Shown here in pieces: positions 4,968-18,360 of a stretch of DNA of 64,000 nt. The notes under the pieces are model-generated. The model was not told where the DNA came from and did not search any database. It worked only from the letters and a program-made list of their open reading frames with translations. Position 1 is the stretch's first letter. Every line of letters starts with the position of its first letter. The DNA comes from a phage: sequence record PX418922.1; one strand, 5' to 3'. The translations under genes were made by a program, and so were the position numbers.

Positions 4968-5156
4968 ATGGCACGTTTAGCAGATAACCCTGTATTCTAC
5001 CCCGTTCTTGATCTTTATGATGAATTGACATATGTTGTGGAGCGGTATAATTACAATGAAGACCTCTTGGAGACAAACCTTAAAGTAGTTCTGATGAAAG
5101 CCTATCAGCAAGGGCAACGTGAAATTTTGGAGAGTATGAAAAATGCGAATAACTGA
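4968..5156 (+). CDS. hypothetical protein (62 aa)
   Basis: RBS AAGGAG before ATG 4968. Confidence 0.45.
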   Translation: MARLADNPVFYPVLDLYDELTYVVERYNYNEDLLETNLKVVLMKAYQQGQREILESMKNANN

Positions 5157-5685
5157 TGATTATGTATTCTTCTTTTCACATAAAGATGTTTTTAGTAATT
5201 GGTATATTGCACCCTTTACAGAAACCGAACCAGGTTACAATCAGACATTTAATTGTGTCGAACAATACATGATGTGGCGTAAAGCTTTGCTTTTTAATGA
5301 CCACAACACTGCACAGGCTATTCTGACTCATAGTTTGATACGGAAAGATGAGAAGATCCAAGCTTATTACAAACGTATGGGTAAGGCAGTGTCGGATTTT
5401 GATAACAACGTATGGGAAGAGAACCGTGAGCGTATTGTTATGCGAGGTTTATGCTTGAAATATGTACAGAATCCAGATTTGTATGCAGACTTACACCTTT
5501 ACCAATACAAAACGTTTGTTGAAGCAAGCCCCTACGATAAGGTTTACGGAATTGGAATGGGGATGTATGAACCAGGGGTGCTAAACCCTGCCACCTGGAA
5601 AGGGCAGAATCTTTTAGGTAAATATCATAATAAACTGATCGAAATACTTTTCCCAGACAAAATACCGCAAAGACGATATTTGTGA
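5143..5685 (+). CDS. NADAR (YbiA-like) domain protein
   Basis: Motifs FFFS..FSNW, E.YMMWRKALLF, EASPYDKVYGIGMG..GQNLLGK resemble the YbiA/DUF1768 N-glycosidase family. Confidence 0.5.
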   Translation: MRITDDYVFFFSHKDVFSNWYIAPFTETEPGYNQTFNCVEQYMMWRKALLFNDHNTAQAILTHSLIRKDEKIQAYYKRMGKAVSDFDNNVWEENRERIVMRGLCLKYVQNPDLYADLHLYQYKTFVEASPYDKVYGIGMGMYEPGVLNPATWKGQNLLGKYHNKLIEILFPDKIPQRRYL

Positions 5686-5911
5686 TATTTTAACTTTTTT
5701 CATTTTTAGAACAAAGGTGTCACTTTGTAGCACAGAAATAAGGCTCCTACAGCACCGTAGAGAGCCTGTTATTTTGTCCTATACAAACCCTTGTCTTTTT
5801 CAGTTTGCATCACTAGGATTCGATCTAAGTAGGTTCCTGAAGGTCTACCAATAAGATTAAAGGTTATCTCAAATTACCACTACCTGTTATCTCAAAAATT
5901 CCTCAAATTAT

Positions 5912-6112
5912 TTAAACTTTTTAAGAATTTACAAAAGTGAAAGTTGAAAACCAAAATTTAAAGTTTAGGAAAATTATCTTAAAATGTCAGATACAAAACA
6001 AAACTCAAAAGTCAAGGAAAATTTTAAAAATTTTGCGCGCCCACAGTATTTAAAGTTTTTTTGCTTTTACAAAAATGAAAGTACAAAAGCAAAATTTAAA
6101 GTTTACAAAAAT
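5912..6112. repeat. tandem imperfect direct repeats (~46-bp core, ~136-bp period) in AT-rich non-coding tract
   Basis: TACAAAAGTGAAAGTTGAAAACCAAAATTTAAAGTTTAGGAAAATT (5930-5975) vs TACAAAAATGAAAGTACAAAAGCAAAATTTAAAGTTTACAAAAATT (6066-6111); TTTAAAGTTT recurs. Confidence 0.6.
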
Positions 6113-6119
6113 TTATGCA

Positions 6120-6240
6120 GATGGGAATGAGAAGAGTTCTCATGTGGAAATGCAAATGATAATGATTCGCATTTAGGTTTATAAATGAGATTGATTCTTA
6201 TTTAATAAAGTAAATGATAATCATTCTCATTTAGAGAATG
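6120..6240. promoter_or_regulatory. cluster of palindromic operator-like sites (half-site TTCTCAT/ATGAGAA), Fur-box-like
   Basis: ATGAGAAGAGTTCTCAT (6127-6143); AATGATAATGATTCGCAT (6155-6172); TAAATGATAATCATTCTCAT (6211-6230) followed by GAGAATG. Confidence 0.45.
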
Positions 6241-6459
6241 ACGCGCAGGGGCGGTGTTTGTCTCGCGCTCCCGTGTCCCCTCGCCATGTACTAAGAATAA
6301 CAGATCCAGCCAGGAAAGCAAGCGATTATTTTATCTTTACATTTCTTTACAAATATATAGCGCCCAGCCTACCGGCGATCAACCTTCCAACCAGTGCCCC
6401 TGGTATGTTAGCCCCGCCTTTACGCCGTGGGGTGGCGCTTCCTCTTCTGTATGTAAAAC

Positions 6460-6488
6460 AGTATAAGCCCTATCCCTGGGCTTGTCAA
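6460..6488 (-). promoter_or_regulatory. sigma70-like promoter on minus strand (TTGACA-N17-TATACT)
   Basis: On minus strand TTGACA (plus 6483-6488), 17-nt spacer, TATACT (plus 6460-6465); drives GC-rich transcript toward ~6250. Confidence 0.35.
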
Positions 6489-6490
6489 GA

Positions 6491-6757
6491 TTATTTTTTG
6501 TTTTCTTGCCAGGTCAGGACACCTAGCCAAAAATGAATATCACCTTTTCCCCAATGTGGTATATTGCTTTCTTTCCCACCTTCACGCGCCCAGGTAAAAC
6601 CGCCCGTGTAACTTTGTAATTGATAACTATCCTCGACCTTATAATCTGATAGGTTGAGAACGGTTTCAACCTTTAAGCCCGTTGCGCTTGCTACCTGGTG
6701 CACCGTGCCGCCTTGCCAGCCCAATGAGTGCATAAGATGTAATGTAGTATTTGTCAT
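6491..6757 (-). CDS. hypothetical protein (88 aa)
   Basis: Minus-strand ORF in the GC-rich block; RBS AAGGG and GC hairpin upstream; divergent from the plus-strand array. Confidence 0.4.
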   Translation of the reverse strand: MTNTTLHLMHSLGWQGGTVHQVASATGLKVETVLNLSDYKVEDSYQLQSYTGGFTWAREGGKESNIPHWGKGDIHFWLGVLTWQENKK

Positions 6758-6866
6758 GGTGTCGCCCTTTCTTTGTTGTGCGCCCTGGTTGGCGCGGTAG
6801 AAAGATGATAGCCCTTTCCTTTATATATAGCAAGCAAAAAGAAAATAAAAAAGATTGAAAAAGTGG

Positions 6867-6923
6867 TTGACGTTCGCCAGGTGGCGGCATAATATTTACC
6901 ACGTAGCGCGGCAATGGTGCCGC
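6867..6923 (+). promoter_or_regulatory. early promoter unit 1 with 5' hairpin
   Basis: TTGACG-N17-TAATAT; TTACCACGTAG start region; hairpin GCGGCA-ATGG-TGCCGC 6908-6923. Confidence 0.6.
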
Positions 6924-6944
6924 TCACTATTTGGAGTTAAGATC

Positions 6945-7142
6945 ATGGCAACATTGCACATTGTGGCGAAAGCTGGACAAATCAACGTAATAGTAAACGG
7001 TTTTACTGAGTTCAGTCATCCCCAGGATGATCATGAAACGGTTTTATCTTTCATTGATTCCCTGTTAGAAATGGGAGTCATTACAGAAGACCAGCACGCT
7101 ACAAAATGCAAGCGCGTTAATCAAATTGCAGGGATAGAATAA
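6945..7142 (+). CDS. hypothetical early protein (65 aa)
   Basis: ATG 6945 after RBS GGAG downstream of unit 1. Confidence 0.5.
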   Translation: MATLHIVAKAGQINVIVNGFTEFSHPQDDHETVLSFIDSLLEMGVITEDQHATKCKRVNQIAGIE

Positions 7143-7148
7143 AAAGTA

Positions 7149-7203
7149 TTGACAACAAACAACAACCTGATAAGATGTATCACATAGGGGCGACAAGCGC
7201 CCC
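7149..7203 (+). promoter_or_regulatory. early promoter unit 2 with 5' hairpin
   Basis: TTGACA-N16-TAAGAT; GTATCACATAGGG; hairpin GGGGCG-ACAAG-CGCCCC 7187-7203. Confidence 0.6.
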
Positions 7204-7227
7204 GCCTAACAGAAGAGAGAAATCATC

Positions 7228-7500
7228 ATGGCATCATATAGCGCAACAATGATCGTAACTGGCACCACTGGTAAACCTATGAGCGGTGGCGGATCTTTCG
7301 CTAATATTAATATTGACGGGCGCTTATCCCTGGACGCAGCGATCACCGTGGCGCGGGAAACATTTAAGAAAGAATGTAAATTCAATAAACAAGATTATCT
7401 CGGTTTCGCTATTGAAAAAACCGCGCGCTTTGTTGATTATAAAAGCCCGAAAATGGTTGATACTACACTGAAAGCGCAAGATGTAGCCTTTTTGCTTTAA
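7228..7500 (+). CDS. hypothetical early protein (90 aa)
   Basis: RBS AGAGAGAAATCATC-ATG; follows unit 2. Confidence 0.55.
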   Translation: MASYSATMIVTGTTGKPMSGGGSFANINIDGRLSLDAAITVARETFKKECKFNKQDYLGFAIEKTARFVDYKSPKMVDTTLKAQDVAFLL

Positions 7501-7503
7501 GGC

Positions 7504-7559
7504 TTGACATTAACGAATAATTTGTTAATATGTTACATAAAGCGGGAATAGTTCCCGCT
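7504..7559 (+). promoter_or_regulatory. early promoter unit 3 with 5' hairpin
   Basis: TTGACA-N16-TAATAT; hairpin AGCGGGAA-TAG-TTCCCGCT 7541-7559. Confidence 0.55.
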
Positions 7560-7576
7560 ATTTGTAAGGTGGTAGA

Positions 7577-7834
7577 ATGTTTTACATCAAATTAAAAGGT
7601 CACGTGATCGCGTTCAAAGATAACGCTTTTTACAGATTAGCAAAATATGCGTTAATACATCCCCACTATGTTTATATAAGGGGGCGTGATGAAATAAATA
7701 TTTTTGATCAAACAACATGCGAAAACATCGAGATCCGCAAGGTTGGCGTACGTGATTATCGTACATCTTTCTACCCTTGCAAGGATTCAGCAAGTCTTTT
7801 TAAAGTATGCCAATTGTTGAAAAAAGGTGGTTAA
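7577..7834 (+). CDS. hypothetical early protein (85 aa)
   Basis: RBS AAGGTGG before ATG. Confidence 0.55.
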   Translation: MFYIKLKGHVIAFKDNAFYRLAKYALIHPHYVYIRGRDEINIFDQTTCENIEIRKVGVRDYRTSFYPCKDSASLFKVCQLLKKGG

Positions 7835-7835
7835 T

Positions 7836-8393
7836 ATGGGCCGCGAATATGTGATCCAGTCTTGGGTAAAACATGAAGCAGATGATCCGCGCATCATTCC
7901 CGATCATCTTATCGATGAATCCACGGGATATAGCGGTGAGCAAATAGGTAACAGATTAGCACGTAGTAACGGCAACGTAAAAGCGCGTTATGTGCGCCCT
8001 GGCTGGCTGGCAAATGGTAACGCTGATTTATCCAGTGCGGAAGATGCGAGCGACGGCGCGAAAGATAATCCTTTGTACAAAATTGATCCGGCTTTTCGTG
8101 TCCTGGATGAATACCCCAGCAAGATAGCGGCGCTCGATCAGGCCCTGGAAAGTAAGCGCATCACCTGGACCGCTTACAACATGGCAAAAAACGTACTTGA
8201 TGGTAAATTGATTCAAGCTGAAAGAAAATTAGCCAAAATTGCAGCCATAACCCAGGAGGAAGACGAGGAGACAACGGAAGAGGAAGAGTACGAAGAGATC
8301 CCGCCGTTGTTGTGTGTTGATGCTTTCCCTGATTATCAGCCGACAGAGGAAGAAAAAAGGATCGCACTAGAAAACTTTGAAAATAGTCTTTGA
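7836..8393 (+). CDS. hypothetical protein with acidic C-terminal region (185 aa)
   Basis: RBS AAAGGTGG before ATG 7836; acidic tract EEDEETTEEEEYEE. Confidence 0.55.
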   Translation: MGREYVIQSWVKHEADDPRIIPDHLIDESTGYSGEQIGNRLARSNGNVKARYVRPGWLANGNADLSSAEDASDGAKDNPLYKIDPAFRVLDEYPSKIAALDQALESKRITWTAYNMAKNVLDGKLIQAERKLAKIAAITQEEDEETTEEEEYEEIPPLLCVDAFPDYQPTEEEKRIALENFENSL

Positions 8394-8446
8394 CATATCG
8401 CCGCCACTGGCATAATATTTACCACGTAGGGCGGCAATGGTGCCGC
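8390..8446 (+). promoter_or_regulatory. early promoter unit 4 with 5' hairpin
   Basis: TTGACA-N17-TAATAT; TTACCACGTAGGG; hairpin GCGGCA-ATGG-TGCCGC 8431-8446. Confidence 0.6.
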
Positions 8447-8475
8447 TCATAGTGAAATTATGCAAGAGGTTTGCA

Positions 8476-8571
8476 ATGATTAATAAAGAAAATAGCTTGA
8501 CGGTTGGAACGATTAACGCTATCATTCTTGCCGTTCCATTTTGGATTGTATTAGCGGCTATTATTTTCTAA
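8476..8571 (+). CDS. small membrane peptide (31 aa)
   Basis: RBS AAGAGG; hydrophobic INAIILAVPFWIVLAAIIF; sits between unit 4 and unit 5. Confidence 0.4.
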   Translation: MINKENSLTVGTINAIILAVPFWIVLAAIIF

Positions 8572-8580
8572 AAAATATTC

Positions 8581-8641
8581 TTGACAACGTTTTTTAATCT
8601 GATAAGATGTATCACATAGGGCGGCGGAATACTTCCCCGCC
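8581..8641 (+). promoter_or_regulatory. early promoter unit 5 with 5' hairpin
   Basis: TTGACA-N16-TAAGAT; GTATCACATAGGG; hairpin GGCGGCGGAA-TACT-TCCCCGCC 8619-8641. Confidence 0.6.
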
Positions 8642-8662
8642 AAAACAAAAAAGGGTAACACA

Positions 8663-9025
8663 ATGAGCAAGCAAATCAATACTATCATGTTTAATCTGGT
8701 ATCTTTCCGCGATGATATGAAAAATTTACCACGTGAAACGGTTGATATTCATGTTTCAGCTTATCGCGCCCTTATTGATATGTTACCGCTAAAACGTGAT
8801 CAACATGCCGCTAATATGATGCTTAATGCTATGCTTAAAAAGATGATTCAAACGGATCTCACCCTGGCGTATGAGTATCAAGGGCGCTTATATGCAACTT
8901 ACAACAAGGCGGTACCTGGTCTGGGAAGTACCGAAGAGTTGCACGGCTTAAACCTGGATCAAAACACTTGGGATAGTATGCGCCGCGTTATGGTATGGGC
9001 CGAAAGCGGTAAAATTTACGAATAA
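8663..9025 (+). CDS. hypothetical early protein (120 aa)
   Basis: RBS AAAAGGG before ATG. Confidence 0.55.
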   Translation: MSKQINTIMFNLVSFRDDMKNLPRETVDIHVSAYRALIDMLPLKRDQHAANMMLNAMLKKMIQTDLTLAYEYQGRLYATYNKAVPGLGSTEELHGLNLDQNTWDSMRRVMVWAESGKIYE

Positions 9026-9031
9026 AAACGG

Positions 9032-9091
9032 TTGACATTGTTTAAAATTCTAGTATAGTTTACCACATAGGGCGGGAAGTGGTTTCCCGCC
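9032..9091 (+). promoter_or_regulatory. early promoter unit 6 with 5' hairpin
   Basis: TTGACA-N16-TATAGT; TTACCACATAGGG; hairpin GGCGGGAA-GTGGT-TTCCCGCC 9071-9091. Confidence 0.6.
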
Positions 9092-9113
9092 AACAATGAA
9101 AAAGGTTATCATC

Positions 9114-9479
9114 ATGGCTATTAATATTAATGTTTCCGCTTATGCTACCCTGGCTAACACGGCTAAAATTGAATTATCCAGCATTGAGGCGGTGCATATT
9201 AGCGCCCGTCGCTGGTTTCAACGGTCCTACGGTAACACATATTTTTCTTTAATGGTTGACGTTGAGATCGGCGGTAAACTGATCGAGGTGGTTAACGTTC
9301 CGTTTCAATATGGCTATGGTGATCATTTTGATACCGTCGCCCTAGAAGAGTTTAGCAAGGTTATCAACCTGGAAGGTAAAGAGTTTTCAAATTATGCCTA
9401 CCTTTCCCGTTTTTGCCGTGACAATGGGATCACTGTATACAGTCATGCGAGCGATGTAAAACGTAAAAAAGATTTATAA
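9114..9479 (+). CDS. hypothetical early protein (121 aa)
   Basis: ATG 9114 preceded by conserved AAAAAGGT..ATC context; alternative in-frame ATG at 9096. Confidence 0.5.
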   Translation: MAININVSAYATLANTAKIELSSIEAVHISARRWFQRSYGNTYFSLMVDVEIGGKLIEVVNVPFQYGYGDHFDTVALEEFSKVINLEGKEFSNYAYLSRFCRDNGITVYSHASDVKRKKDL

Positions 9480-9485
9480 AAAGCA

Positions 9486-9545
9486 TTGACAGCACGAATA
9501 AAAAGAGTAAACTGTATTACATAGAGAGCGGGAACACTTCCCGCC
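9486..9545 (+). promoter_or_regulatory. early promoter unit 7 with 5' hairpin
   Basis: TTGACA-N16-TAAACT; GTATTACATAGAG; hairpin GCGGGAA-CAC-TTCCCGC 9528-9544. Confidence 0.6.
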
Positions 9546-9568
9546 TCACTGAAAAAGAGAGAAAAATC

Positions 9569-9808
9569 ATGGCTAAATCTAAAATGTACAACGGTCACAA
9601 AAACAAAACTCATTGGAATGTAAGCCTTTGGATTAATAACGATGAATCGTTATACCGGTTGGCCCAAGATTTTATTAACGCTAATGCTAATCGTAATGAT
9701 GCGGCGCGGGATATGATGCTTTTTCTGGAACAAACTGGACAAGATAAAACGCCAGACGGTTTCAAATATAGCACTACTGCGATCCGTGCCGCGATGGTTG
9801 GAATGTAA
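9569..9808 (+). CDS. hypothetical early protein (79 aa)
   Basis: RBS AAGAGAGAAAAATC-ATG. Confidence 0.55.
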   Translation: MAKSKMYNGHKNKTHWNVSLWINNDESLYRLAQDFINANANRNDAARDMMLFLEQTGQDKTPDGFKYSTTAIRAAMVGM

Positions 9809-9817
9809 TAAAAACAG

Positions 9818-9877
9818 TTGACAACGTTTAAAATTAGTGTAAGATGTATCACATAGGGCGGGAAGTGGTTTCCCGCC
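9818..9877 (+). promoter_or_regulatory. early promoter unit 8 with 5' hairpin
   Basis: TTGACA-N16-TAAGAT; GTATCACATAGGG; hairpin GGCGGGAA-GTGGT-TTCCCGCC 9857-9877 (identical to unit 6). Confidence 0.6.
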
Positions 9878-9898
9878 AAAACAAAGAGATTAAAGATT

Positions 9899-10126
9899 AT
9901 GGCTATCAATATTGTTCGCGTATCCGGCACCGTTGGCACTTCCCAGGTTATTGCAGTTGTAACAAACAAAAAGATTAATGATGTATGTGAGATCTTGAAT
10001 AAGTGGGCTATTGCTAATTTTGGGGAATATGCAAGCGTCGAGTACATCGAATCCTACCAGGTGCCAACCATCAGCCTAACCGATCTCAACGTTGATCGCC
10101 TGTTATGCCTGGATGAATTGATCTGA
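9899..10126 (+). CDS. hypothetical early protein (75 aa)
   Basis: RBS AAAGAGA..ATT-ATG after unit 8. Confidence 0.55.
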   Translation: MAINIVRVSGTVGTSQVIAVVTNKKINDVCEILNKWAIANFGEYASVEYIESYQVPTISLTDLNVDRLLCLDELI

Positions 10127-10135
10127 AAAAGATTG

Positions 10136-10191
10136 TTGACACCGGAAAGAAAAAGAGTAAACTGTATTACGTAGGGCGGCAATGGTGCCGC
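10136..10191 (+). promoter_or_regulatory. early promoter unit 9 with 5' hairpin
   Basis: TTGACA-N16-TAAACT; GTATTACGTAGGG; hairpin GCGGCA-ATGG-TGCCGC 10176-10191. Confidence 0.6.
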
Positions 10192-10216
10192 TCACAACAA
10201 AAGAGAGATTATTACG

Positions 10217-10429
10217 ATGGCTAATATCCGCACACTGTTAAAAAATGCAAGTCAAGTTTTATTTTCAGATGACGAGTATTTCAATAAAGACATTACAGGC
10301 GTGAAGAATATCAAAGATGTAAAAAGTGTTATGGGTATATATTGCAATGTTAAACGTGTTGGAACGTTCGGTGATAAAGTATTGTACCAATCAGGTGATT
10401 ACAATTTTACTTTGACGATTATTTCATAA
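10217..10429 (+). CDS. hypothetical early protein (70 aa)
   Basis: RBS AAGAGAGA before ATG. Confidence 0.55.
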   Translation: MANIRTLLKNASQVLFSDDEYFNKDITGVKNIKDVKSVMGIYCNVKRVGTFGDKVLYQSGDYNFTLTIIS

Positions 10430-10434
10430 AACGC

Positions 10435-10496
10435 TTGCAATACTGCAAAAATAAAGTAAACTGTATTACATCAAGGCGGCGGAATGGTCCACCGCC
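10435..10496 (+). promoter_or_regulatory. early promoter unit 10 with 5' hairpin
   Basis: TTGCAA-N16-TAAACT; GTATTACATCAAGG; hairpin GGCGGCGGA-ATGG-TCCACCGCC 10475-10496. Confidence 0.55.
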
Positions 10497-10520
10497 TAAC
10501 AAAGAGAAGAGGAAAATATC

Positions 10521-10688
10521 ATGATCACTTTCGCTACCCGTGAAGCCGCTCGCAACGTTGCACGTAAAGTTAACGCCGCCAACCTGGGCGCTACTTTTAA
10601 AGCGCCTGTAAAAGATGAATCAGGAAAATGGATCTTCCCTGGTCTGCGTCACGCTGATAAGCTAGGCACTTTAAGCCTTAAAAAATAA
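10521..10688 (+). CDS. small basic protein (55 aa)
   Basis: RBS AGAGGAAAATATC-ATG; first 16 nt of coding sequence identical to the next ORF (ATGATCACTTTCGCTA). Confidence 0.45.
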   Translation: MITFATREAARNVARKVNAANLGATFKAPVKDESGKWIFPGLRHADKLGTLSLKK

Positions 10689-10691
10689 TCG

Positions 10692-10729
10692 TTGACTTTT
10701 CGTTATAGCGCCCATTATAAGGCGCTATA
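10692..10729 (+). promoter_or_regulatory. early promoter unit 11 (variant hairpin)
   Basis: TTGACT-N17-TTATAA; 9-bp inverted repeat TATAGCGCC..GGCGCTATA 10705-10729 overlaps the -10 region. Confidence 0.45.
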
Positions 10730-10762
10730 GAGAAGAGAAACCACTACTAACAAGGAAACATC

Positions 10763-10984
10763 ATGATCACTTTCGCTATTGTCGCCGTTGTCGCTGGTCA
10801 GGTTTACGTAAACGATACATTCACCACAGAAGACAAGGCCGCAGGAGACATAACCGCCGTTTACAATGAGTGCAAGGCAGTAGAAAGGATGTTAGCGCCT
10901 TGTATGTTAATGAGTGAACGCCAGGACGGGATAACAGTGTTTACTAACATTGAAACAGGGTACCAAATGGTAGTAACAAAATAA
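10763..10984 (+). CDS. hypothetical early protein (73 aa)
   Basis: RBS-like AAGGAAA; N-terminus MITFA shared with previous small ORF. Confidence 0.5.
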   Translation: MITFAIVAVVAGQVYVNDTFTTEDKAAGDITAVYNECKAVERMLAPCMLMSERQDGITVFTNIETGYQMVVTK

Positions 10985-10987
10985 AGC

Positions 10988-11044
10988 TTGACACGGATTT
11001 AATTTTCAGTAAACTGTTACACGTAGGGCGGGAATAGTTCCCGC
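10988..11044 (+). promoter_or_regulatory. early promoter unit 12 with 5' hairpin
   Basis: TTGACA-N16-TAAACT; GTTACACGTAGGG; hairpin GGCGGGAA-TAG-TTCCCGC 11027-11044. Confidence 0.6.
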
Positions 11045-11062
11045 TAAAAAGAGAGAAAGACC

Positions 11063-11416
11063 ATGAAAGCACAAAATGCAATTAAAGAGTACATCCTTGC
11101 CGCTATCGATTTTAATGATTACGGTATTACAACCGAAAAAGAGAAGATCGCGGAATTGATGCGCCGTTTTAATTCCGAGTACTGGTACCCTGATAATCAA
11201 TCACGTTTTAATTATAGTATTGTTAAAGCACTTGCATCATGGTTACAAGGCTTGCCATCAGATATTAATATAGCTTTCGAATATTGGGAAATTGATCGTT
11301 TGTTAACATCCTGGGGATACATTAAAGAGAATAGCAGCGATGATAAAATCCAACGAGAAAGGGAAAATTATTGGCTTTATATTGCAGGCGTGATCCTTGC
11401 TTGCTCTTATGAATGA
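11063..11416 (+). CDS. hypothetical early protein (117 aa)
   Basis: RBS AAGAGAGAAAGACC-ATG. Confidence 0.55.
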   Translation: MKAQNAIKEYILAAIDFNDYGITTEKEKIAELMRRFNSEYWYPDNQSRFNYSIVKALASWLQGLPSDINIAFEYWEIDRLLTSWGYIKENSSDDKIQRERENYWLYIAGVILACSYE

Positions 11417-11422
11417 TAAACC

Positions 11423-11476
11423 TTGACAATTTTACAAAACAGTTTAAATTAATAATATAGCGGCAATGGTGCCGCT
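11423..11476 (+). promoter_or_regulatory. early promoter unit 13 with 5' hairpin (spacing atypical)
   Basis: TTGACA then TAAATT or TAATAT; hairpin GCGGCA-ATGG-TGCCGC 11460-11475 lies closer to -10 than in other units. Confidence 0.4.
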
Positions 11477-11495
11477 CATATAAAGAGGAAACAAA

Positions 11496-11642
11496 ATGAA
11501 TACATCTAATCGCGCAGAAAAAATTCAATCTTCCAAGATCCGCAAGGCCTGGAATGAGGAAGTGATCCGCAAAGGCGACAAGCGCAATAAAACAAAGCGC
11601 GGGAAGAGTGACAAATATAATTGGATGGATTTAGAGGATTAA
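11496..11642 (+). CDS. small basic protein (48 aa)
   Basis: RBS AAGAGGAAACAAA-ATG; Lys/Arg-rich; followed by terminator. Confidence 0.45.
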   Translation: MNTSNRAEKIQSSKIRKAWNEEVIRKGDKRNKTKRGKSDKYNWMDLED

Positions 11643-11650
11643 CATAACAA

Positions 11651-11676
11651 GGGCGCACCAAGCGCCCTTTCTTTTT
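11651..11676 (+). terminator. rho-independent terminator
   Basis: GGGCGCACCAAGCGCCC hairpin followed by TTTCTTTTT. Confidence 0.65.
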
Positions 11677-11697
11677 ACATGTAGAGGATAAACAAAA

Positions 11698-11883
11698 ATG
11701 ACTTTAAACGAGCTTAAAACAGCCTATAACGCAACATTAAAAATAGCCGTGCGTTACCGTGACGAATACGGTTTTATTGCGCAGGGCGTGATCCTGGGCT
11801 TTTCTGACGATGGTTTGATCTATGTTGATGCACATCACAACAAGGTTAAACCGGAAAACGTTATCAGTATAAAATATCTTTAA
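11698..11883 (+). CDS. hypothetical protein (61 aa)
   Basis: RBS GAGGATAAACAAAA-ATG. Confidence 0.5.
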   Translation: MTLNELKTAYNATLKIAVRYRDEYGFIAQGVILGFSDDGLIYVDAHHNKVKPENVISIKYL

Positions 11884-11889
11884 AAGTGG

Positions 11890-11946
11890 TTGACACCATA
11901 ACCGGACCTGTTAAACTGTATTACATCAGGCGGGGAATAGTTCCCC
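11890..11946 (+). promoter_or_regulatory. early promoter unit 14 with 5' hairpin
   Basis: TTGACA-N16-TAAACT; GTATTACATCAGG; hairpin GGGGAA-TAG-TTCCCC 11929-11946. Confidence 0.55.
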
Positions 11947-11969
11947 AACCATACAAAAAGGTAAATATT

Positions 11970-12176
11970 ATGATCACCGCAAAACAAGAAAAAATCATTA
12001 TCGACGTTGCAGCCGTTGCCGCTATTGCTATTATTGGATCTTATTATGATACCCGTTTCCCGTCGGCTATGCATGAGATCGCCGCCGTTGCATCAGTTGG
12101 CGTGCTGTTTTACGTTGGTAAACGCTATTTATCACCAATGATTAACAAGCTGACACCGTGGAAAAATAAAGGTTGA
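11970..12176 (+). CDS. small membrane protein (68 aa)
   Basis: ATG 11970 preceded by AAAAAGGTAAATATT; hydrophobic IIIDVAAVAAIAIIGSYY. Confidence 0.5.
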   Translation: MITAKQEKIIIDVAAVAAIAIIGSYYDTRFPSAMHEIAAVASVGVLFYVGKRYLSPMINKLTPWKNKG

Positions 12177-12230
12177 TCCTGTTTTATATTGTGTTATAGT
12201 TATCGTGTAGGGCGGCAATGGTGCCGCGCC
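12173..12230 (+). promoter_or_regulatory. early promoter unit 15 with 5' hairpin
   Basis: TTGATC-N16-TATAGT; TATCGTGTAGGG; hairpin GCGGCA-ATGG-TGCCGC 12212-12227. Confidence 0.5.
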
Positions 12231-12247
12231 CCTTTGAGGATGCAATC

Positions 12248-12532
12248 ATGAGTAAAGCTAACACCGTGCTAATGTTTTCCCTGATTAATGATCCCGCTTA
12301 CTTGTCCAACATGACGCAGGAGGGTAACACATTAACGGCAACATTCACCAATAAGCTTGACCGAGTGATCATCATCTCACTGAAAACAGTTAGTAAAGGC
12401 TTTTACTCGTTAGCTTATCATTGGATCACTGATACCGATGAGACAAGCCAGGACTATAGCGCCCCTTTCCCTGAATCAATGGCACGGGAGATCATCGCCG
12501 CCGTTGTAAATGATGGTTTGTTTACTGCATAA
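12248..12532 (+). CDS. hypothetical early protein (94 aa)
   Basis: RBS GAGGATGCAATC-ATG. Confidence 0.5.
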   Translation: MSKANTVLMFSLINDPAYLSNMTQEGNTLTATFTNKLDRVIIISLKTVSKGFYSLAYHWITDTDETSQDYSAPFPESMAREIIAAVVNDGLFTA

Positions 12533-12549
12533 ATAATTTAGAAAAAGGC

Positions 12550-12606
12550 TTGCAATCATTTTGAGATAGTGTATATTTAATTCATAGGGCGGCGGGAATA
12601 GTTCCC
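12550..12606 (+). promoter_or_regulatory. early promoter unit 16 with 5' hairpin
   Basis: TTGCAA-N16-TATATT; TTCATAGGG; hairpin GGGAA-TAG-TTCCC 12587-12606. Confidence 0.5.
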
Positions 12607-12629
12607 AAAGCAAACGAGAGGATTACACG

Positions 12630-12749
12630 ATGAGCAAGTACACAGTAGAATACACGGTAGAGAATCCGGCAGTATCCGAAGGTAAAAAGATGACATTTGC
12701 CATCAGTATAATCGCTTTCGTTGTCACTATCTTATCAATCATCTTATAA
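12630..12749 (+). CDS. small membrane peptide (39 aa)
   Basis: RBS GAGAGGATTACACG-ATG; hydrophobic C-terminus AISIIAFVVTILSIIL. Confidence 0.4.
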   Translation: MSKYTVEYTVENPAVSEGKKMTFAISIIAFVVTILSIIL

Positions 12750-12759
12750 GGTACACACC

Positions 12760-12921
12760 ATGAAAATAACAGACATTATCAAAGAGATCGCCCTTGCCGC
12801 TGGCGTTGAAGTCGAGGAAGTGATCGCGCTCAATCTTACAGAAAACGATCTGCGCAACTATGAAGCGGAAAGCGTGAAAGCAAGCGGCGCGGTCCTGGTA
12901 TATGATCCGGCTAACAAGTAA
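12760..12921 (+). CDS. hypothetical small protein (53 aa)
   Basis: ATG 12760 with weak AAGG RBS. Confidence 0.4.
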   Translation: MKITDIIKEIALAAGVEVEEVIALNLTENDLRNYEAESVKASGAVLVYDPANK

Positions 12922-12930
12922 GGGGGTAAC

Positions 12931-13041
12931 ATGAATCCGAAAGATATGCAAGCATGGAAAGGGTACGACGATCTAAGCGCCTTGCGCAATAAGTCAAGCC
13001 GTAACTTTAGACGGTTGGAAGCAAAGAAAAAGAAAAAATAG
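12931..13041 (+). CDS. small basic peptide (36 aa)
   Basis: RBS AAGGGGG before ATG 12931; Lys-rich C-terminus. Confidence 0.35.
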   Translation: MNPKDMQAWKGYDDLSALRNKSSRNFRRLEAKKKKK

Positions 13042-13042
13042 T

Positions 13043-13098
13043 TTGACAAGTCCGCCTAGTCTGATAATATGTATCTTGTAGGGCGGCAATGGTGCCGC
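13043..13098 (+). promoter_or_regulatory. early promoter unit 17 with 5' hairpin
   Basis: TTGACA-N16-TAATAT; GTATCTTGTAGGG; hairpin GCGGCA-ATGG-TGCCGC 13083-13098. Confidence 0.6.
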
Positions 13099-13119
13099 TC
13101 ACAAGAAGAGAGAAAAATC

Positions 13120-13404
13120 ATGAAAATTACAAAAAGCCTAACTAATTATGCAGCACGTCGCGGATTATGTTTAACCGTTGAAAACTTAGGGAAAGAAGAC
13201 TTTTTGTGTTTTTGGGAGCTTGAGAATGATTGCGAGTGGATGTTTTCTTATTCTATCTGCGAAGATCAAAACGGTTGTTTGTTAACCTGGCGCGGTAATA
13301 TCTATTTACCGGAAGAAATTAAAGAAGAGTTACCAGGTACGATCATGACAGAGAGACAGCTTAAGGAAGTGATCAATTTTGTAGGGCAAAACATTAAAAA
13401 ATAA
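13120..13404 (+). CDS. hypothetical early protein (94 aa)
   Basis: RBS AGAAGAGAGAAAAATC-ATG. Confidence 0.55.
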   Translation: MKITKSLTNYAARRGLCLTVENLGKEDFLCFWELENDCEWMFSYSICEDQNGCLLTWRGNIYLPEEIKEELPGTIMTERQLKEVINFVGQNIKK

Positions 13405-13405
13405 T

Positions 13406-13466
13406 TTGACAGCAGGCAAACAACGTAGTAAAGTTTACCACATAGGGCGGCGGAATGGTCCACCGC
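13406..13466 (+). promoter_or_regulatory. early promoter unit 18 with 5' hairpin
   Basis: TTGACA-N17-TAAAGT; TTACCACATAGGG; hairpin GGCGGCGGA-ATGG-TCCACCGC 13446-13466. Confidence 0.55.
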
Positions 13467-13489
13467 TCACAACAGAAGAGAAACAAATC

Positions 13490-13660
13490 ATGATCCCGAC
13501 TATGTTTTATGTATCGCGCAAAGGTCACAATATTTTTTGGTCTGAAGATTTAAATGAAGCTATGACGTTTGCCCGTGATCGTGTTGCTATCGGTGGCGTT
13601 AACATCACCGTAACCGATGAAAATGGCATTGAATACTATAACGGCGACGATGAAGAATAA
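13490..13660 (+). CDS. hypothetical early protein (56 aa)
   Basis: RBS AGAAGAGAAACAAATC-ATG. Confidence 0.5.
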   Translation: MIPTMFYVSRKGHNIFWSEDLNEAMTFARDRVAIGGVNITVTDENGIEYYNGDDEE

Positions 13661-13667
13661 TTAATGA

Positions 13668-13688
13668 GGCGGGGGAGTATTCCCCGCC
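13668..13688 (+). promoter_or_regulatory. 5' UTR hairpin without a clear -35/-10
   Basis: GGCGGGGGA-GTAT-TCCCCGCC stem-loop 20 nt before RBS of 13708 gene; promoter hexamers not convincing. Confidence 0.35.
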
Positions 13689-13707
13689 GTCAATAAAGAG
13701 GTAAATC

Positions 13708-13977
13708 ATGAAAATATCATTAGACGTTGCAATCAAGGCCATCGAATCCGGTTACACCCTGGTAAAAGATGATAAGGCTAAAACCGTGCACCACGTTAAC
13801 AAAGAAACAGGCGAAAGCATGATCACATATAAAGCCGCCTACTTTCTCCAATCAGTAGCAGATCCGCGCGTACAACGCCAGGTTACAGCGGCTATTGCTA
13901 AAAAATTATGTGCTTTACAGGGCACAAGTTTTAACGAGATCGCCCCGTGTTTTGACTGGTCGAGCTTGAAAAAATAG
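13708..13977 (+). CDS. hypothetical early protein (89 aa)
   Basis: RBS AAAGAGGTAAATC-ATG. Confidence 0.55.
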   Translation: MKISLDVAIKAIESGYTLVKDDKAKTVHHVNKETGESMITYKAAYFLQSVADPRVQRQVTAAIAKKLCALQGTSFNEIAPCFDWSSLKK

Positions 13978-13978
13978 T

Positions 13979-14040
13979 TTGACAACAATTATAAATCGGG
14001 TAGAATGTATTTCGTAGGGCGGGGCAATGGTGCAACGCCT
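13979..14040 (+). promoter_or_regulatory. early promoter unit 20 (degenerate hairpin)
   Basis: TTGACA-N16-TAGAAT; GTATTTCGTAGGG; weaker stem GGCG...CGCC 14018-14040. Confidence 0.5.
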
Positions 14041-14058
14041 ACTAATGAGGGTAAAATC

Positions 14059-14163
14059 ATGTTAGAGAAAATTTTCACGGTTGTAGTAGTGGGCCTGGTG
14101 TTATCGGTTGGAGTGGTTGCAACTATGGCTAACATGATCCTATCTTCCCACGGTATTGGATAA
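14059..14163 (+). CDS. small membrane peptide (34 aa)
   Basis: RBS GAGGGTAAAATC-ATG; hydrophobic FTVVVVGLVLSVGVVATMANMIL. Confidence 0.4.
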   Translation: MLEKIFTVVVVGLVLSVGVVATMANMILSSHGIG

Positions 14164-14173
14164 GGTGAATCAA

Positions 14174-14389
14174 ATGATCACGAATAAGACAGGTAAAACA
14201 GAATTTTTACGCGCCTTGCAGATCGGCAAGCCTGAGATCTGGCATTGCACTAAATCCGCGCATAATGAAATGAAAGATTTTACCGCTACTTTACAACGTG
14301 TTAAAATATCTATCACACAGAAAAAAGCCTTGTTAGTAGTAGAAAACGAGATCCCGCAAACTATTATTATTGTCGAGCGTACAGCATGA
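14174..14389 (+). CDS. hypothetical protein (71 aa)
   Basis: RBS AAGGTG before ATG 14174; alternative TTG start at 14156. Confidence 0.5.
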   Translation: MITNKTGKTEFLRALQIGKPEIWHCTKSAHNEMKDFTATLQRVKISITQKKALLVVENEIPQTIIIVERTA

Positions 14390-14772
14390 AAACAGAAATC
14401 ATTATTGAAATCATCAACGGTTATAAAGAAGCCTTTATTTTTGCTGAATCAGCAAGGGATCATGAAGGTAATTTTATTGATAACTTAGACGATTATGATT
14501 TTTCTCCTAGCGTGGATCAACGGATCGCCCAGGATGTAACAGCCTTTATTAATGCTAATCTTGCCGCTATCTCTGAGGCAATGAGCGACGGCGCAACAGC
14601 CAACCAGATCGGGAATGATTTACATTTTACCCGTAACGGTCACGGCGTAGGCTTTTGGGATCGCCCTGAAATATACACCACTAACACGGCGAACCGCCTA
14701 ACCAATGCAGCTAAGTTTATGCCGAACGTGTCGGCTTACATTGGTGAAGATAATTTGATTTATATTGAATAA
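14386..14772 (+). CDS. hypothetical protein (128 aa)
   Basis: ATGA overlap with upstream ORF. Confidence 0.55.
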   Translation: MKTEIIIEIINGYKEAFIFAESARDHEGNFIDNLDDYDFSPSVDQRIAQDVTAFINANLAAISEAMSDGATANQIGNDLHFTRNGHGVGFWDRPEIYTTNTANRLTNAAKFMPNVSAYIGEDNLIYIE

Positions 14773-14778
14773 AAAGTA

Positions 14779-14837
14779 TTGACACCGATCCCCAATATGG
14801 TACTATTTACCACGTAGGCGGGAAATGGTTTCCCGCC
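14779..14837 (+). promoter_or_regulatory. early promoter unit 21 with 5' hairpin
   Basis: TTGACA-N16-TACTAT; TTACCACGTAGG; hairpin GGCGGGAAA-TGG-TTTCCCGCC 14817-14837. Confidence 0.6.
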
Positions 14838-14860
14838 AGGTAATCAAAAAGGTAAATACT

Positions 14861-15250
14861 ATGCGCAACCTGGTTTCTGTTTCTAACGTTGAAAAATTTC
14901 AATCTTTACAGGGTATCGTTAACAACGTAGCGCCTTTTTTAGTCAACGGCTTGATTGCAAAGATGAAAAATAAACATCATGCGGCATGGTCTGCTTACTG
15001 CTTTGATAATGATGAAAAAGCGGCTGAAATGATGTTAAATATGCTGTTAGACAGTGTAGAATCATCTTTACCGGAAAACATCGCAGAAGAGATCACCTAT
15101 CGTTATAATATGGCGATCACTTACCAGGAGGTTGCGCAATTTAATATGATGGACGATGACGAACAACAGGATCAGGAAATGTTTTGGGAGTATGCTGATC
15201 GTCAATCGGCTTTTGATGAAAAATTAGCGATGTATTATAACGAATATTAA
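14861..15250 (+). CDS. hypothetical early protein (129 aa)
   Basis: ATG 14861 preceded by AAAAAGGTAAATACT. Confidence 0.55.
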   Translation: MRNLVSVSNVEKFQSLQGIVNNVAPFLVNGLIAKMKNKHHAAWSAYCFDNDEKAAEMMLNMLLDSVESSLPENIAEEITYRYNMAITYQEVAQFNMMDDDEQQDQEMFWEYADRQSAFDEKLAMYYNEY

Positions 15251-15266
15251 TACACGGTAAAAGAAA

Positions 15267-15290
15267 GGGGCGCACTAAGCGCCCTTTTTT
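15267..15290 (+). terminator. rho-independent terminator
   Basis: GGGGCGCACTAAGCGCCC hairpin followed by TTTTTT. Confidence 0.7.
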
Positions 15291-15635
15291 GTATTCTTTT
15301 TTCACGATGGAAACAACACGTAAAGAATAGGCGTAAAGGTGGCGTAAAACCATCTAAAACCGACTGTAACCGCTTAAACAAGGTAGGAATGATTAATCAC
15401 CTTGCCAGGATGAAAAAGCCGTTATAAAGCTATCTAGAGCGTTTAAAGCACATAGGAAATAATTTGCTTTTTATCTTGCCTTTTACCCTGCTTTTGATTA
15501 TTATTATGGAACGGGCGGCACCTGGAGACAGGGGAAGATAATCACCGGAAGATCCCGCTATATATTGATAGCTAATACCTATTAAACAACAAAACATCAA
15601 AGGAATAAACTATCAAATCTTTACAATTCTACCTA

Positions 15636-15670
15636 TTGACACCGGATCGCCCTTATACTAAGATGTATCA
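15636..15670 (+). promoter_or_regulatory. early promoter unit 22 (no GC hairpin)
   Basis: TTGACA-N17-TAAGAT; GTATCACGTAGGG conserved start region but downstream hairpin absent. Confidence 0.5.
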
Positions 15671-15710
15671 CGTAGGGCAAATGATTTTAAACGGTAAACG
15701 AGGAATCACC

Positions 15711-16094
15711 ATGAGCAATATCATCAACCTGGCAGCGACTGTAAACGGTAAAGACTTTAACGGCGCTGTAGACCGTGATCCTATGTGGTACTTGTCAGTG
15801 TTTAAAGGCGATCTGGTTGAAGTTAGAACAACCGAAGGGTATAGCGATGATTATAAATGCGAGATTCATTTACATAATTGGTACACGGGTAAAACTTATG
15901 CGCTGAATCACGCGTTTATCGGAAAAATCGAATATCGTGAGATGATCGACGAAGAAACGGGGCAAGATTTTAGCGAAAACGTTTATATTCGTTCCGAGAC
16001 ATTAGCCGAACGTTTGATCGAGAAAATGAAAGCAAAAAATAAAATTAATTTATCTCATTGGATTGATATAACAAACGATCCAGCTTATCAGTAA
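15711..16094 (+). CDS. hypothetical early protein (127 aa)
   Basis: RBS CGAGGAATCACC-ATG. Confidence 0.55.
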   Translation: MSNIINLAATVNGKDFNGAVDRDPMWYLSVFKGDLVEVRTTEGYSDDYKCEIHLHNWYTGKTYALNHAFIGKIEYREMIDEETGQDFSENVYIRSETLAERLIEKMKAKNKINLSHWIDITNDPAYQ

Positions 16095-16110
16095 ATAACA
16101 TTTCATACCA

Positions 16111-16136
16111 GGGCGCACAAAGCGCCCTTTCTTTTT
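16111..16136 (+). terminator. rho-independent terminator
   Basis: GGGCGCACAAAGCGCCC hairpin followed by TTTCTTTTT. Confidence 0.7.
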
Positions 16137-16139
16137 GCC

Positions 16140-17150
16140 CGAACAATGTTGATAGATTCCGCCTATGGAAAACCGACACAGAACAAAACTGAATAAATAG
16201 CGGTATCAAGCTAATCAACCATTAAATGAATAACCATACCTCCCAGGGTAACAGGCTGTTAGAGAGCCATTTAAAGCGGTTAAAATCGATCAACAACCAA
16301 CAACAAACCATCAAAAACACCCTTTTACCTCCTTTCTAGTGCAATGATAACCATTATCATCTATCCATGTTTATCTATACAATATAAGTGCATAATTATA
16401 ATGTTGATAATAGTTCGCAACAACTAACCAACAAACAACATAAAACAATAAGCAAACTAATCATAATCAAAGGAATAATAGCAAGATGATTGATAACAAC
16501 AAACAATCAAACCATGATGAATACTAAGCAAGATAACGATAACACGACAAAACAACCAACTAACGAACAATAACAAACGAAACCATTAAAATAATAACTA
16601 TTGCCATAATAGTGACTAAATGAAATCATTACAAAACGAATCATTCACAGAGTCATCATTAGCACGCTATGCCGGACACATAGCGAGCTAATAATAAGCC
16701 AACTACACCCCAACAATCATAACCATCGGTGATGGTTATTTCTTGTTACTGCGTAGCTTGCAATAATTGCAAGCGTAATGACGCTTACACTTATTGCGCT
16801 GGCTTATTATTAGCATTATATGTAATTACCAAGATCATAACATTAGCGCAATAACAATAATCATTGTGGTAATTACGTAAGGAAACAATTAGCATGGCAA
16901 TAATTATGGGGCAATGGGAGGATGATTATCATCATTCCGATACATTGCACACTATGCACATAATAGAATAAAAAGCAATAATTTTGGGGGCGAAATGTTA
17001 CCGCCACAGGCGGGAATGTTGAGCACTAAGAAAAGAGATAAACCTTAATCATGGGGGCGTAAATATCCGCAGGATTGCCAACGGCGATCCGGTAGGATGT
17101 TGAGCATCTTCTCTTAAACGTAAATAAAATCAGAAAATTCTTGATTTATT
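16140..17150. other. A+C-rich, G-poor non-coding tract with palindromes (candidate origin, regulatory region or ncRNA)
   Basis: About 1 kb without credible ORF; runs of CAACAA/AACAAA; palindromes CTTGCAATAATTGCAAG (~16757), GATGATTATCATC (~16920), AGCGT-AATG-ACGCT (~16774). Confidence 0.45.
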
Positions 17151-17174
17151 TTAGTTTTTATGTTAATAAACGTT

Positions 17175-17379
17175 TAAATAATAATCATTCTCATATAAAT
17201 AATAGTCTGCTTGTCATGAGCGGGATTAGTTGACAATGTTCCGTCATATGATGAAGTTGCCAACCTATTGATAAATAAGTGTTTGTGTGATTTATAATCA
17301 AGTGGCCCACCTTGTCGCTACGTTGGCATAAGCCTTGCATAAGTCATTGAATACGAATGATAATTATTCTCATTCGCAT
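17175..17379. promoter_or_regulatory. second cluster of Fur-box-like / TTCTCAT palindromic sites
   Basis: TAAATAATAATCATTCTCAT (17175-17194) is 19/20 identical to 6211-6230; AATGATAATTATTCTCATTCGCAT (17356-17379) matches 6155-6172. Confidence 0.45.
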
Positions 17380-17493
17380 GATATTTGGGAATTGTCGCTG
17401 CGTGGACCTGACGGCCCGAAAATTCGCGTTAAGCACTTCTTACGTATGCGCCATGATTTTTGCCATATGATATTGATTCTATTAGATATTCTT

Positions 17494-17678
17494 GCCATGA
17501 TTGCCATGAAACAGGGTGTCCCGAAATAATCTTTCCCCGTAGATATTTTGGGTTACTTTTTATACAAGAGTGGGGTGTCAAAAATAATCGGTATATATGG
17601 GATAATTGATAGGAATCCCCTATGATAATTCGATTGTAATTCCCTGAGATTGATCGTATGATGTTGGTGATTGATGAT
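17494..17678. repeat. direct repeats ATGATTGCCATGAAA (two copies ~170 bp apart) and GGTGTC..AAATAATC
   Basis: Copies at ~17494-17508 and ~17664-17678; GGTGTCCCGAAATAATC (~17515) vs GGTGTCAAAAATAATC (~17573). Confidence 0.35.
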
Positions 17679-17715
17679 TGCCATGAAAGATGGCTAACGA
17701 TGAGAGGAGATTATC

Positions 17716-18090
17716 ATGCAAGAGAGTAAAAATATTCCGTTGAGCAGTGCAGCATTGCTTCGCTTCTATAAAGCATGGATTGCCAACTATCCTGCAATGA
17801 ATCGCACAACGAGTGGCTTATGTGGTTGTCTGGTGGATTATGTAGATGATTTTGTTGGTGAGACAACTAGAGAAGAAGATAGAAGATGGCGGGATAGTTT
17901 GTTGGACCGTTTGAAATATGAAATGAGGAGACAATTTACATGTGCAGGGCTGGACTATAATCTTCCGTTCAATGCAGATTGCATGGATTACCTTTCAGAG
18001 TGTATAAACTTGGCGTGTCATACCAACACGTTACGTCTTCAGTGGGTGAAAGACAGAATTGAAGATGCAAATAATGTTTGCATTGAATAA
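17716..18090 (+). CDS. GLCxCL-family small protein (124 aa), paralogue set member 1
   Basis: RBS GAGGAG; motifs FYKAW..YP, GLCGCL, C-terminal LRLQWVKDR shared with 22323, 28117, 29422 ORFs. Confidence 0.6.
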   Translation: MQESKNIPLSSAALLRFYKAWIANYPAMNRTTSGLCGCLVDYVDDFVGETTREEDRRWRDSLLDRLKYEMRRQFTCAGLDYNLPFNADCMDYLSECINLACHTNTLRLQWVKDRIEDANNVCIE

Positions 18091-18149
18091 AAATGTCTGT
18101 ATAGTGGTTTGCATACCGCGCATAACAGATAGCCAATGAGGAGATTGAA

Positions 18150-18359
18150 ATGTCAAATATGAAAACTGTATCCTTGTATTTAGCTAACACTGATCGTGTG
18201 CACACCCTTGCTAACGCAAGTCGTGTACTCGTGCAGTTCCGAAACTTTAAGCCGTCCGTTGTGACAGGCAGTGAAACGTGTGTTATCGATTTCATTAACG
18301 AATACTTCCGAGGGAATCCGGTTGGTCGTTACTTTATTAAGGGTTTGAAGGATGCATAG
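18150..18359 (+). CDS. hypothetical protein (69 aa)
   Basis: RBS GAGGAG before ATG. Confidence 0.55.
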   Translation: MSNMKTVSLYLANTDRVHTLANASRVLVQFRNFKPSVVTGSETCVIDFINEYFRGNPVGRYFIKGLKDA

Positions 18360-18360
18360 T

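Follow-up and report, generated by a model that had tools for sequence, protein, structure and literature searches.

Short palindromes in a 64,000-nucleotide stretch of phage DNA (sequence record PX418922.1; the whole stretch is called the window below) are, by comparison with Escherichia coli K-12, sequence-equivalent to native operators of the host iron regulator Fur. Seven clear copies, boxes A to G, lie in two long non-coding regions, NC1 and NC2, on either side of an 11-kb block of early-type genes. The positions of such boxes are kept in four phage genera of three lineages, and they include the injection-stop region of phage T5. We give a probability of about 0.55 to the reading, drawn from the sequence, that the boxes are high-affinity operators for host Fur that form boundary elements of the early segment, and that they are not recombination sites. 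Several Escherichia phages, ECML-183-2, tuntematon and KKP 3954 among them, are 95-97% identical to window positions 5500-18000, and the phage is placed in the genus Phapecoctavirus, subfamily Stephanstirmvirinae, as a phAPEC8-like virulent E. coli myovirus with a genome of about 150 kb.

Results

A previous reading of the sequence without database searches (the sequence-only reading) had pointed to two 20-mers on the two sides of the block, with a second related copy near each. Both 20-mers were recovered, TAAATGATAATCATTCTCAT at 6211-6230 and TAAATAATAATCATTCTCAT at 17175-17194, one base apart, as were the second copies at 6155-6172 and 17356-17379. Three further copies at 6126-6144, 6184-6202 and 16343-16361 bring the total to seven clear copies, all of them confined to NC1 and NC2, and a degenerate additional copy was found at 16403. 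The left group is a tandem array of four copies with 29-bp spacing (starts at 6126, 6155, 6184 and 6213; families D11 and D12 of the repeat finder), the unit of which is a palindrome of the form TAAATGAnAATnATTCTCATTTA. A search with the pattern AATGATAATCATTCTCAT allowing up to 3 mismatches gave nine strand-matches at six sites, all within 6155-6231 or 16343-17374. The six sites compare with 0.16 matches expected by chance, and none of 100 shuffles reached nine matches, so that a chance similarity of AT-rich DNA was ruled out. The direct orientation of the copies that had been remarked upon carries little meaning for a near-palindrome, and a segment of tuntematon (3688-3733) has boxes C and D inverted relative to window 6184-6231. 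Boxes C and D themselves form an inverted repeat (6182-6204 and 6211-6233, 87% complementary) that could mediate the flip seen in tuntematon.

The relation to Fur operators was examined in both directions. Box D matches the classical Fur 19-mer GATAATGATAATCATTATC at 16 of 19 positions. With up to 2 mismatches allowed, the 7-1-7 consensus TGATAATnATTATCA occurs seven times in the 64 kb, five times at boxes of this set and twice elsewhere. We derived a 19-bp matrix solely from 25 phage copies and applied it to 250 kb of E. coli K-12 DNA around known iron genes, where 12 of its 15 top hits fell in known Fur-regulated promoters: ryhB, fecI, fhuA, entC/fepB (four hits), cirA, entS/fepD, fecA, fepA/fes and feoA. 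The ryhB hit sits directly upstream of the RyhB RNA 5' end, and this operator, AATAATAATCATTCTCATT, is identical to box F (17177) at 18 of 19 positions. Reciprocally, a host matrix made from ten of the K-12 Fur sites (consensus AATGATAATCATTATCATT) was scanned over the window; its six best hits were the six strong phage boxes, which scored 21.9-27.5 compared with an average best score of 16.5 in 100 shuffles. Sites scoring at least 20 number six in the 64-kb window versus two in 250 kb of host DNA rich in the Fur regulon; by matrix score the phage boxes are thus stronger than most native Fur operators. The phage consensus slightly favours ATGAGAAT/ATTCTCAT over the textbook ATGATAAT/ATTATCAT, and this G/C variant, which the sequence-only reading had stressed, is also present in the host ryhB, fhuA and fecI operators. 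At the level of sequence these matrix tests strongly bear out the suggestion that the elements are host Fur sites, and Fur very probably binds the predicted boxes.

No Fur homologue is encoded in any Stephanstirmvirinae, Vequintavirinae or T5-like record. The four-box array was not found by BLAST in 5,426 E. coli genomes, a search whose E-value limits do not admit matches as short as single sites; a host-derived promoter fragment was ruled out as the source of the array, which occurs in 0 of the 5,426 genomes.

Conservation of the boxes was followed in other phages. The array and the GC-rich element that adjoins it are conserved in Stephanstirmvirinae and Vequintavirinae, in Justusliebigvirus as well as across the latter subfamily, with box D almost invariant in both; the alignment included phages phiTE, FFH2, PVP-SE1, Mydo, ChuuTotoro and NDO71. 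A short array query matched 817 phage records including hundreds of T5-like phages, the BLAST matches to which fall over window 6148-6225. When the first 100 kb of T5 were scanned, strong boxes were detected only at 231-249 and at 9473-9636. The lone box at 231-249, ACTGATAATCATTATCATC, scores 21 and lies inside the dmp gene, while those at 9473, 9577 (AATGAGAATCATTATCATT) and 9612 score 25-32; between 50 and 100 kb no site scored above 10. The boxes at 9473-9636 match features annotated in T5 as palindromes E, G and I and direct repeat C; as a group they span the estimated shear point of first-step transfer at 9618 and adjoin the 7.9% nick. According to Davison (bioRxiv 10.1101/866236), it is impossible to guess what the palindromes in the injection-stop region of T5 do.

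The same arrangement relative to the genome ends was found in two further phages. Boxes lie at 53 and 248 inside the 342-bp terminal repeat of Justusliebigvirus BME3 (PMC12210895); two more follow at 1159 and 1217, and positions 11877-11988 hold an array of five. In the Vequintavirinae phage KPP-1, whose terminal repeat was mapped at 116316-116829 (PMC9862379), a single box is located within the repeat, the following 630 bp contain four more, and the array with the conserved core lies 8.9 kb from the repeat; all but one of the genes between repeat and array are transcribed towards the terminus. The distance of the array from the physical end is 7.5% of the genome in the phage studied here (11.3 kb of about 150 kb), 7.9% in T5, 8.1% in BME3 and about 6% in KPP-1, and in all four genomes the early-side transcription unit points at the array. 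Common to the phage groups is the Fur-type array only, the extra repeats beside it differing by group. Similar box arrays were also observed outside the three groups studied, in K64-1, phiKp_21, Citrobacter phage Tr1 and Vibrio and Aeromonas phages; among these outliers are two Klebsiella phages, a jumbo phage of 346 kb and one of 52 kb. When IMG/VR was scanned for homologues, most contigs retrieved with a 15-mer of the conserved core were unrelated, and the 30-mer retrieved only 12 contigs.

The right-hand pair of boxes had been taken as a boundary of the block. It is not so placed but sits inside the direct terminal repeat, the physical genome ends: the genome of WPEC6 begins and ends with the same 328 bp, a repeat that maps to window 17103-17430 and has the length described for Phapecoctavirus Schickermooser (PMC6563267). 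With boxes F and G inside the terminal repeat, the block makes up the final 11.3 kb of the linear genome, with transcription running towards the genome end. Concatemeric DNA brackets the block with box clusters on both sides, which gives the pattern seen in the sequence-only reading. A long T5-like terminal repeat spanning the 11-kb block was ruled out by the repeat length of 328 bp. Box G is conserved in WPEC6, phiWec190 and BME3. The coordinates of the boxes and of the features around them are collected in Table 1.

Table 1. Boxes and neighbouring features, in window coordinates (. in the strand column, no strand assigned)
Feature	Position	Strand	Description
NC1	5855-6490	.	35.5% GC; AT-rich repeats, four-box array, conserved GC-rich element
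Two AT-rich 72-bp direct repeats	5904-5975, 6042-6113	+	82% identical; left of the array; repeat family D17
Box A	6126-6144	.	AATGAGAAGAGTTCTCATG; weakest array member; matrix score 19.0
Box B	6155-6173	.	AATGATAATGATTCGCATT; scores 28.5 (phage matrix), 23.9 (E. coli matrix)
Box C	6184-6202	.	AATGAGATTGATTCTTATT; scores 24.9 (phage matrix), 21.9 (E. coli matrix)
Box D	6213-6231	.	AATGATAATCATTCTCATT; best copy; scores 31.9 (phage matrix), 27.5 (E. coli matrix)
Conserved GC-rich non-coding element	6232-6460	.	Adjoins box D; about 230 nt; invariant core GTTAGCCCCGCCTTTnCGCCGTGGGGTGGCG
Sigma-70 promoter-like site	6460-6488	-	TTGACA-17-TATACT; 11/12 matches; reads towards the array
Open reading frame (ORF) of 88 amino acids	6491-6757	-	Only minus-strand gene here; transcribed towards the array; phrog_19316, unknown function
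Early-type block	6860-16130	+	About 25 small ORFs, all transcribed towards the terminal repeat
NC2	16131-17715	.	1.6 kb; A/C-rich tract, conserved hairpins, terminal repeat
Box E	16343-16361	.	AATGATAACCATTATCATC; scores 24.9, 22.9; conserved in phiWec190, BME3
Degenerate box	16403-16421	.	GTTGATAATAGTTCGCAAC; homologous BME3 position is a strong box
Direct terminal repeat (physical genome ends)	17103-17430	.	328 bp; placed by homology, not by reads of this isolate
Candidate promoter	17141-17169	+	TTGATT-17-TAATAA; just upstream of box F; -35 hexamer conserved in three genomes
Box F	17177-17195	.	AATAATAATCATTCTCATA; 74 bp inside the left edge of the terminal repeat
Box G	17356-17374	.	AATGATAATTATTCTCATT; 56 bp inside the right edge of the terminal repeat; scores 30.0, 26.9

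Control of flanking transcription by the boxes, one of the possibilities raised in the sequence-only reading, is weakly supported. No convincing promoter was detected within the four-box array on either strand. One conserved promoter-like site (TTGATT-17-TAATAA) lies upstream of box F, which begins about 8 bp after it.

To the left of the block, both hexamers of the minus-strand promoter-like site of NC1 are conserved in alignments, and this promoter (6488 to 6460) could give an RNA of about 235 nt ending in a hairpin with Fur box D as its 3' arm. Window 6232-6490 is 70-98% conserved across two phage subfamilies, with an invariant 30-nt core and one hairpin that co-varies. The GC-rich element (6232-6460) has no Rfam match; its consensus folds reach -57 and -59 kcal/mol on the two strands, with single-sequence z-scores of +0.6 and -0.6 that are not significant for a structured RNA. 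The counterpart of NC1 in tuntematon has no annotated plus-strand coding sequence, and the minus-strand ORF at 6491-6757 is annotated in both tuntematon and EmilieFrey. The 72-bp AT-rich repeats are specific to this phage group, relatives of other genera having different repeats at that position; they contain weak promoter-like sites. The genes directly to the left of NC1 lie at 3609-4595 and 5143-5685; their products are a CapR-domain protein, which also matches T5orf172 weakly, and a protein with a NADAR domain.

Within the block every small ORF comes with a near-consensus sigma-70 promoter (TTGACA-N16-TAnnnT) and a GGGCGG...CCGCC hairpin in its leader, and often also with a terminator. The promoter-hairpin array noticed before is real, as seen by the promoter scan and repeat families D1-D10. 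The block had also been described as the only visibly GC-richer region. It is indeed the richest 11-kb stretch, at 40.4% compared with 38.3% GC elsewhere, but the gap is small, and individual stretches of 1 kb elsewhere, at 35-37 kb and 49-51 kb, are equally rich. Ten block products that were examined are of unknown function, except for one T4 gp30.8-like protein. All 276 related records carry the block, and in none of them are there breakpoints at the repeats; the content of the block is internally mosaic (50-90% coverage).

On the right, many GenBank records of relatives start or stop within NC2. Its first part (16131-17102) is about 1 kb without an ORF and with strong strand asymmetry, including an A/C-rich tract at 16250-16650 (AT skew 0.24, GC skew -0.15) and several hairpins at 16660-16770 that are conserved as far as Justusliebigvirus. 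The word TTGCCAT(GA) occurs at 17460, 17492, 17501 and 17678, in the DNA that directly follows the terminal repeat and precedes the first gene of the left end. No tRNA genes were detected in the window by a tRNA scan and no Rfam families matched it. The serine recombinase at 27036-27707 belongs to the Resolvase family (Pfam PF00239, E = 5e-18), in an otherwise strictly virulent myovirus. The phAPEC8-like relatives are virulent myoviruses of 145-152 kb, and some near-identical Phapecoctavirus records are labelled as Campylobacter, Acinetobacter or Pseudomonas phages, which are probably host mislabels.

Discussion

The above results lead us to favour a model in which Fe2+-loaded Fur dimers would coat the box clusters to give boundary complexes. 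Such complexes would halt host RNA polymerase between the early segment and the remaining genome, and they could possibly also halt DNA entry at the edge of the early segment. Fur on the boxes may in addition keep the very AT-rich flanks free of silencing proteins or block the spread of such proteins. A barrier role is favoured because the clusters sit at the ends of transcription units and not over promoters, with the exception of box F; from the position of the boxes we propose this boundary or barrier role tentatively, with somewhat more doubt than assent. A much bolder and rather improbable extension is that the array would be the shared core of an injection-stop boundary. The rV5-like and phAPEC8-like myoviruses would then, like T5, deliver the terminal 6-8% of their DNA first, and the pre-existing host factor long sought for the arrest or gating of further DNA entry or read-out would be Fur, bound to the array and to the boxes at the DNA tips. 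If this were true the first minutes of infection would be sensitive to the iron status of the cell.

Several observations weigh against a Fur-dependent boundary. The four-box array is without a convincing promoter, so that classical Fur repression is not evident there, and the candidate promoter upstream of box F has an atypical -10 hexamer that ends in A. The spacings between boxes of 17, 23, 29 and 35 bp (6n-1) fit neither a simple hexamer register nor a single helical face, and KPP-1 has just one strong box within its terminal repeat. Moreover, Fur is inactive in iron-starved cells, the condition in which the T5 receptor FhuA is most abundant, so that an essential role for bound Fur would be odd.

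No positional role would be needed if the boxes acted as a decoy, the seven to nine strong sites per genome being multiplied by replication to titrate host Fur and to derepress iron uptake and RyhB for iron-dependent enzymes of the phage. The principle is that of the Fur titration assay, and both the scores of the phage sites, which exceed those of most native operators, and the presence of arrays in many unrelated virulent phages are in accordance with it. A pure sponge, however, has no need of positions that are tightly conserved in four genera relative to the termini and to the neighbouring element. Titration would moreover come only late, after replication, and T5 degrades host DNA early, so that derepressed host genes would be of no gain to it. 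We consider such a decoy unlikely. It is also quite improbable that the palindromes are operators of a phage-encoded dimeric DNA-binding protein with Fur-like specificity, a possibility raised in the sequence-only reading. Palindrome arrays beside early genes are typical of phage operators, many nearby ORFs are of unknown function, and the consensus leans slightly away from the textbook Fur half-sites. Yet the same G/C variant occurs in host operators, and the motif is common to T5-like siphoviruses and to rV5-like and phAPEC8-like myoviruses, three unrelated groups that share no Fur, A1 or A2 homologue. With additional repeats that change from group to group, the common denominator is a host factor.

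The nearness of some boxes to the genome ends could instead point to signals that help the terminase or a host cofactor at the repeat boundaries, or that shield the ends once the DNA has entered the cell. The distance inward from the repeat edge is 74 bp for box F and 56 bp for box G, the corresponding distances in BME3 are 52 and 76 bp, and in T5 the lone box is 231 bp from the left end and the array about 500 bp from the inner edge of the terminal repeat. This explanation does not account for the largest cluster, the four-box array, which is 11 kb from the terminus here, its counterparts in KPP-1 and BME3 being 9-12 kb away, and to our knowledge the terminases of these phage groups are unrelated; we hold it to be distinctly unlikely. 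As to recombination sites, for instance for the serine recombinase at 27036-27707, the near-identical copies on both sides of the block, the Resolvase-family protein encoded in the window and the mosaic content of the block between relatives would be in accordance with an exchangeable cassette. We rejected this reading, which has only a very slight chance of being right. Alignment with relatives, a check set beforehand, showed the block to be absent from 0 of the 276 related records, none of which has breakpoints at the boxes. The sites are near-palindromic and flip orientation between strains, as boxes C and D do in tuntematon; there are seven copies rather than two, the right-hand pair lies within the terminal repeat and the same sites occur in T5.

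The Fur box is a textbook element and single Fur boxes on cargo operons of temperate phages are already known. In the open-access literature we found nothing that connects Fur with the palindromes of T5, rV5-like or phAPEC8-like phages, and no account of clustered Fur boxes that are conserved as landmarks in the genomes of virulent phages, here at the tips of the DNA and at the early segment's inner edge. Reading the T5 palindromes as Fur operators offers a concrete hypothesis, cheap to test, for a 60-year-old puzzle. The same hypothesis covers two large groups of coliphages, rV5-like and phAPEC8-like, which have a broad host range and are used in therapy. It would also tie early phage development to the supply of iron, which is highly variable both in the gut and in infected tissue.

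In comparison with the E. coli Fur operators (ryhB, fhuA, fecI, entC) the phage boxes have the same 19-bp inverted repeat, and the phage and host matrices recognise each other's sites. Unlike those operators they are found in a virulent phage, form a four-copy tandem array with 29-bp spacing, recur within the terminal repeat and are mostly not visibly over a promoter. Temperate phages likewise bear host Fur sites on cargo genes (sitABCD, stx1), stx1 being a Fur-controlled cargo. The Fur box of the sit operon, carried by lambdoid phages, controls such cargo genes (PMC6969025). The cargo boxes are single operators over the promoter of one iron-related operon, whereas the boxes described here form clusters at genome landmarks, and no iron-related genes were found among the neighbouring proteins examined. 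The four evenly spaced palindromic repeats beside an AT-rich repeat region also recall a lambda-type replication origin. Unlike in such an origin no initiator gene overlaps or adjoins the array, its neighbours being the NADAR protein and ORFs of unknown function; more copies lie in the terminal repeat, and the motif is that of a host regulator and is common to unrelated phages.

In T5 a 10-kb terminal repeat covers the first-step segment, in contrast to the 328 bp of this phage, and T5 has paired DnaA boxes in large inverted repeats, whereas no match to TTWTNCACA was found in window 5000-18500, which includes both non-coding regions. T5 also has the A1 and A2 transfer genes. A tblastn search of 50,697 phage records for homologues of these gave none in Stephanstirmvirinae or Vequintavirinae among the matches listed, which were from T5-like and other siphoviruses, and we know of no two-step injection in the group of the phage studied here. 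What the two share is the layout, a repeat-rich non-coding region about 8% from the genome end that follows early genes with host-type promoters, and the elements themselves: Repeat Region 3 of T5, the injection stop signal region with palindromes E-J and direct repeat C, has the same palindromes as this phage.

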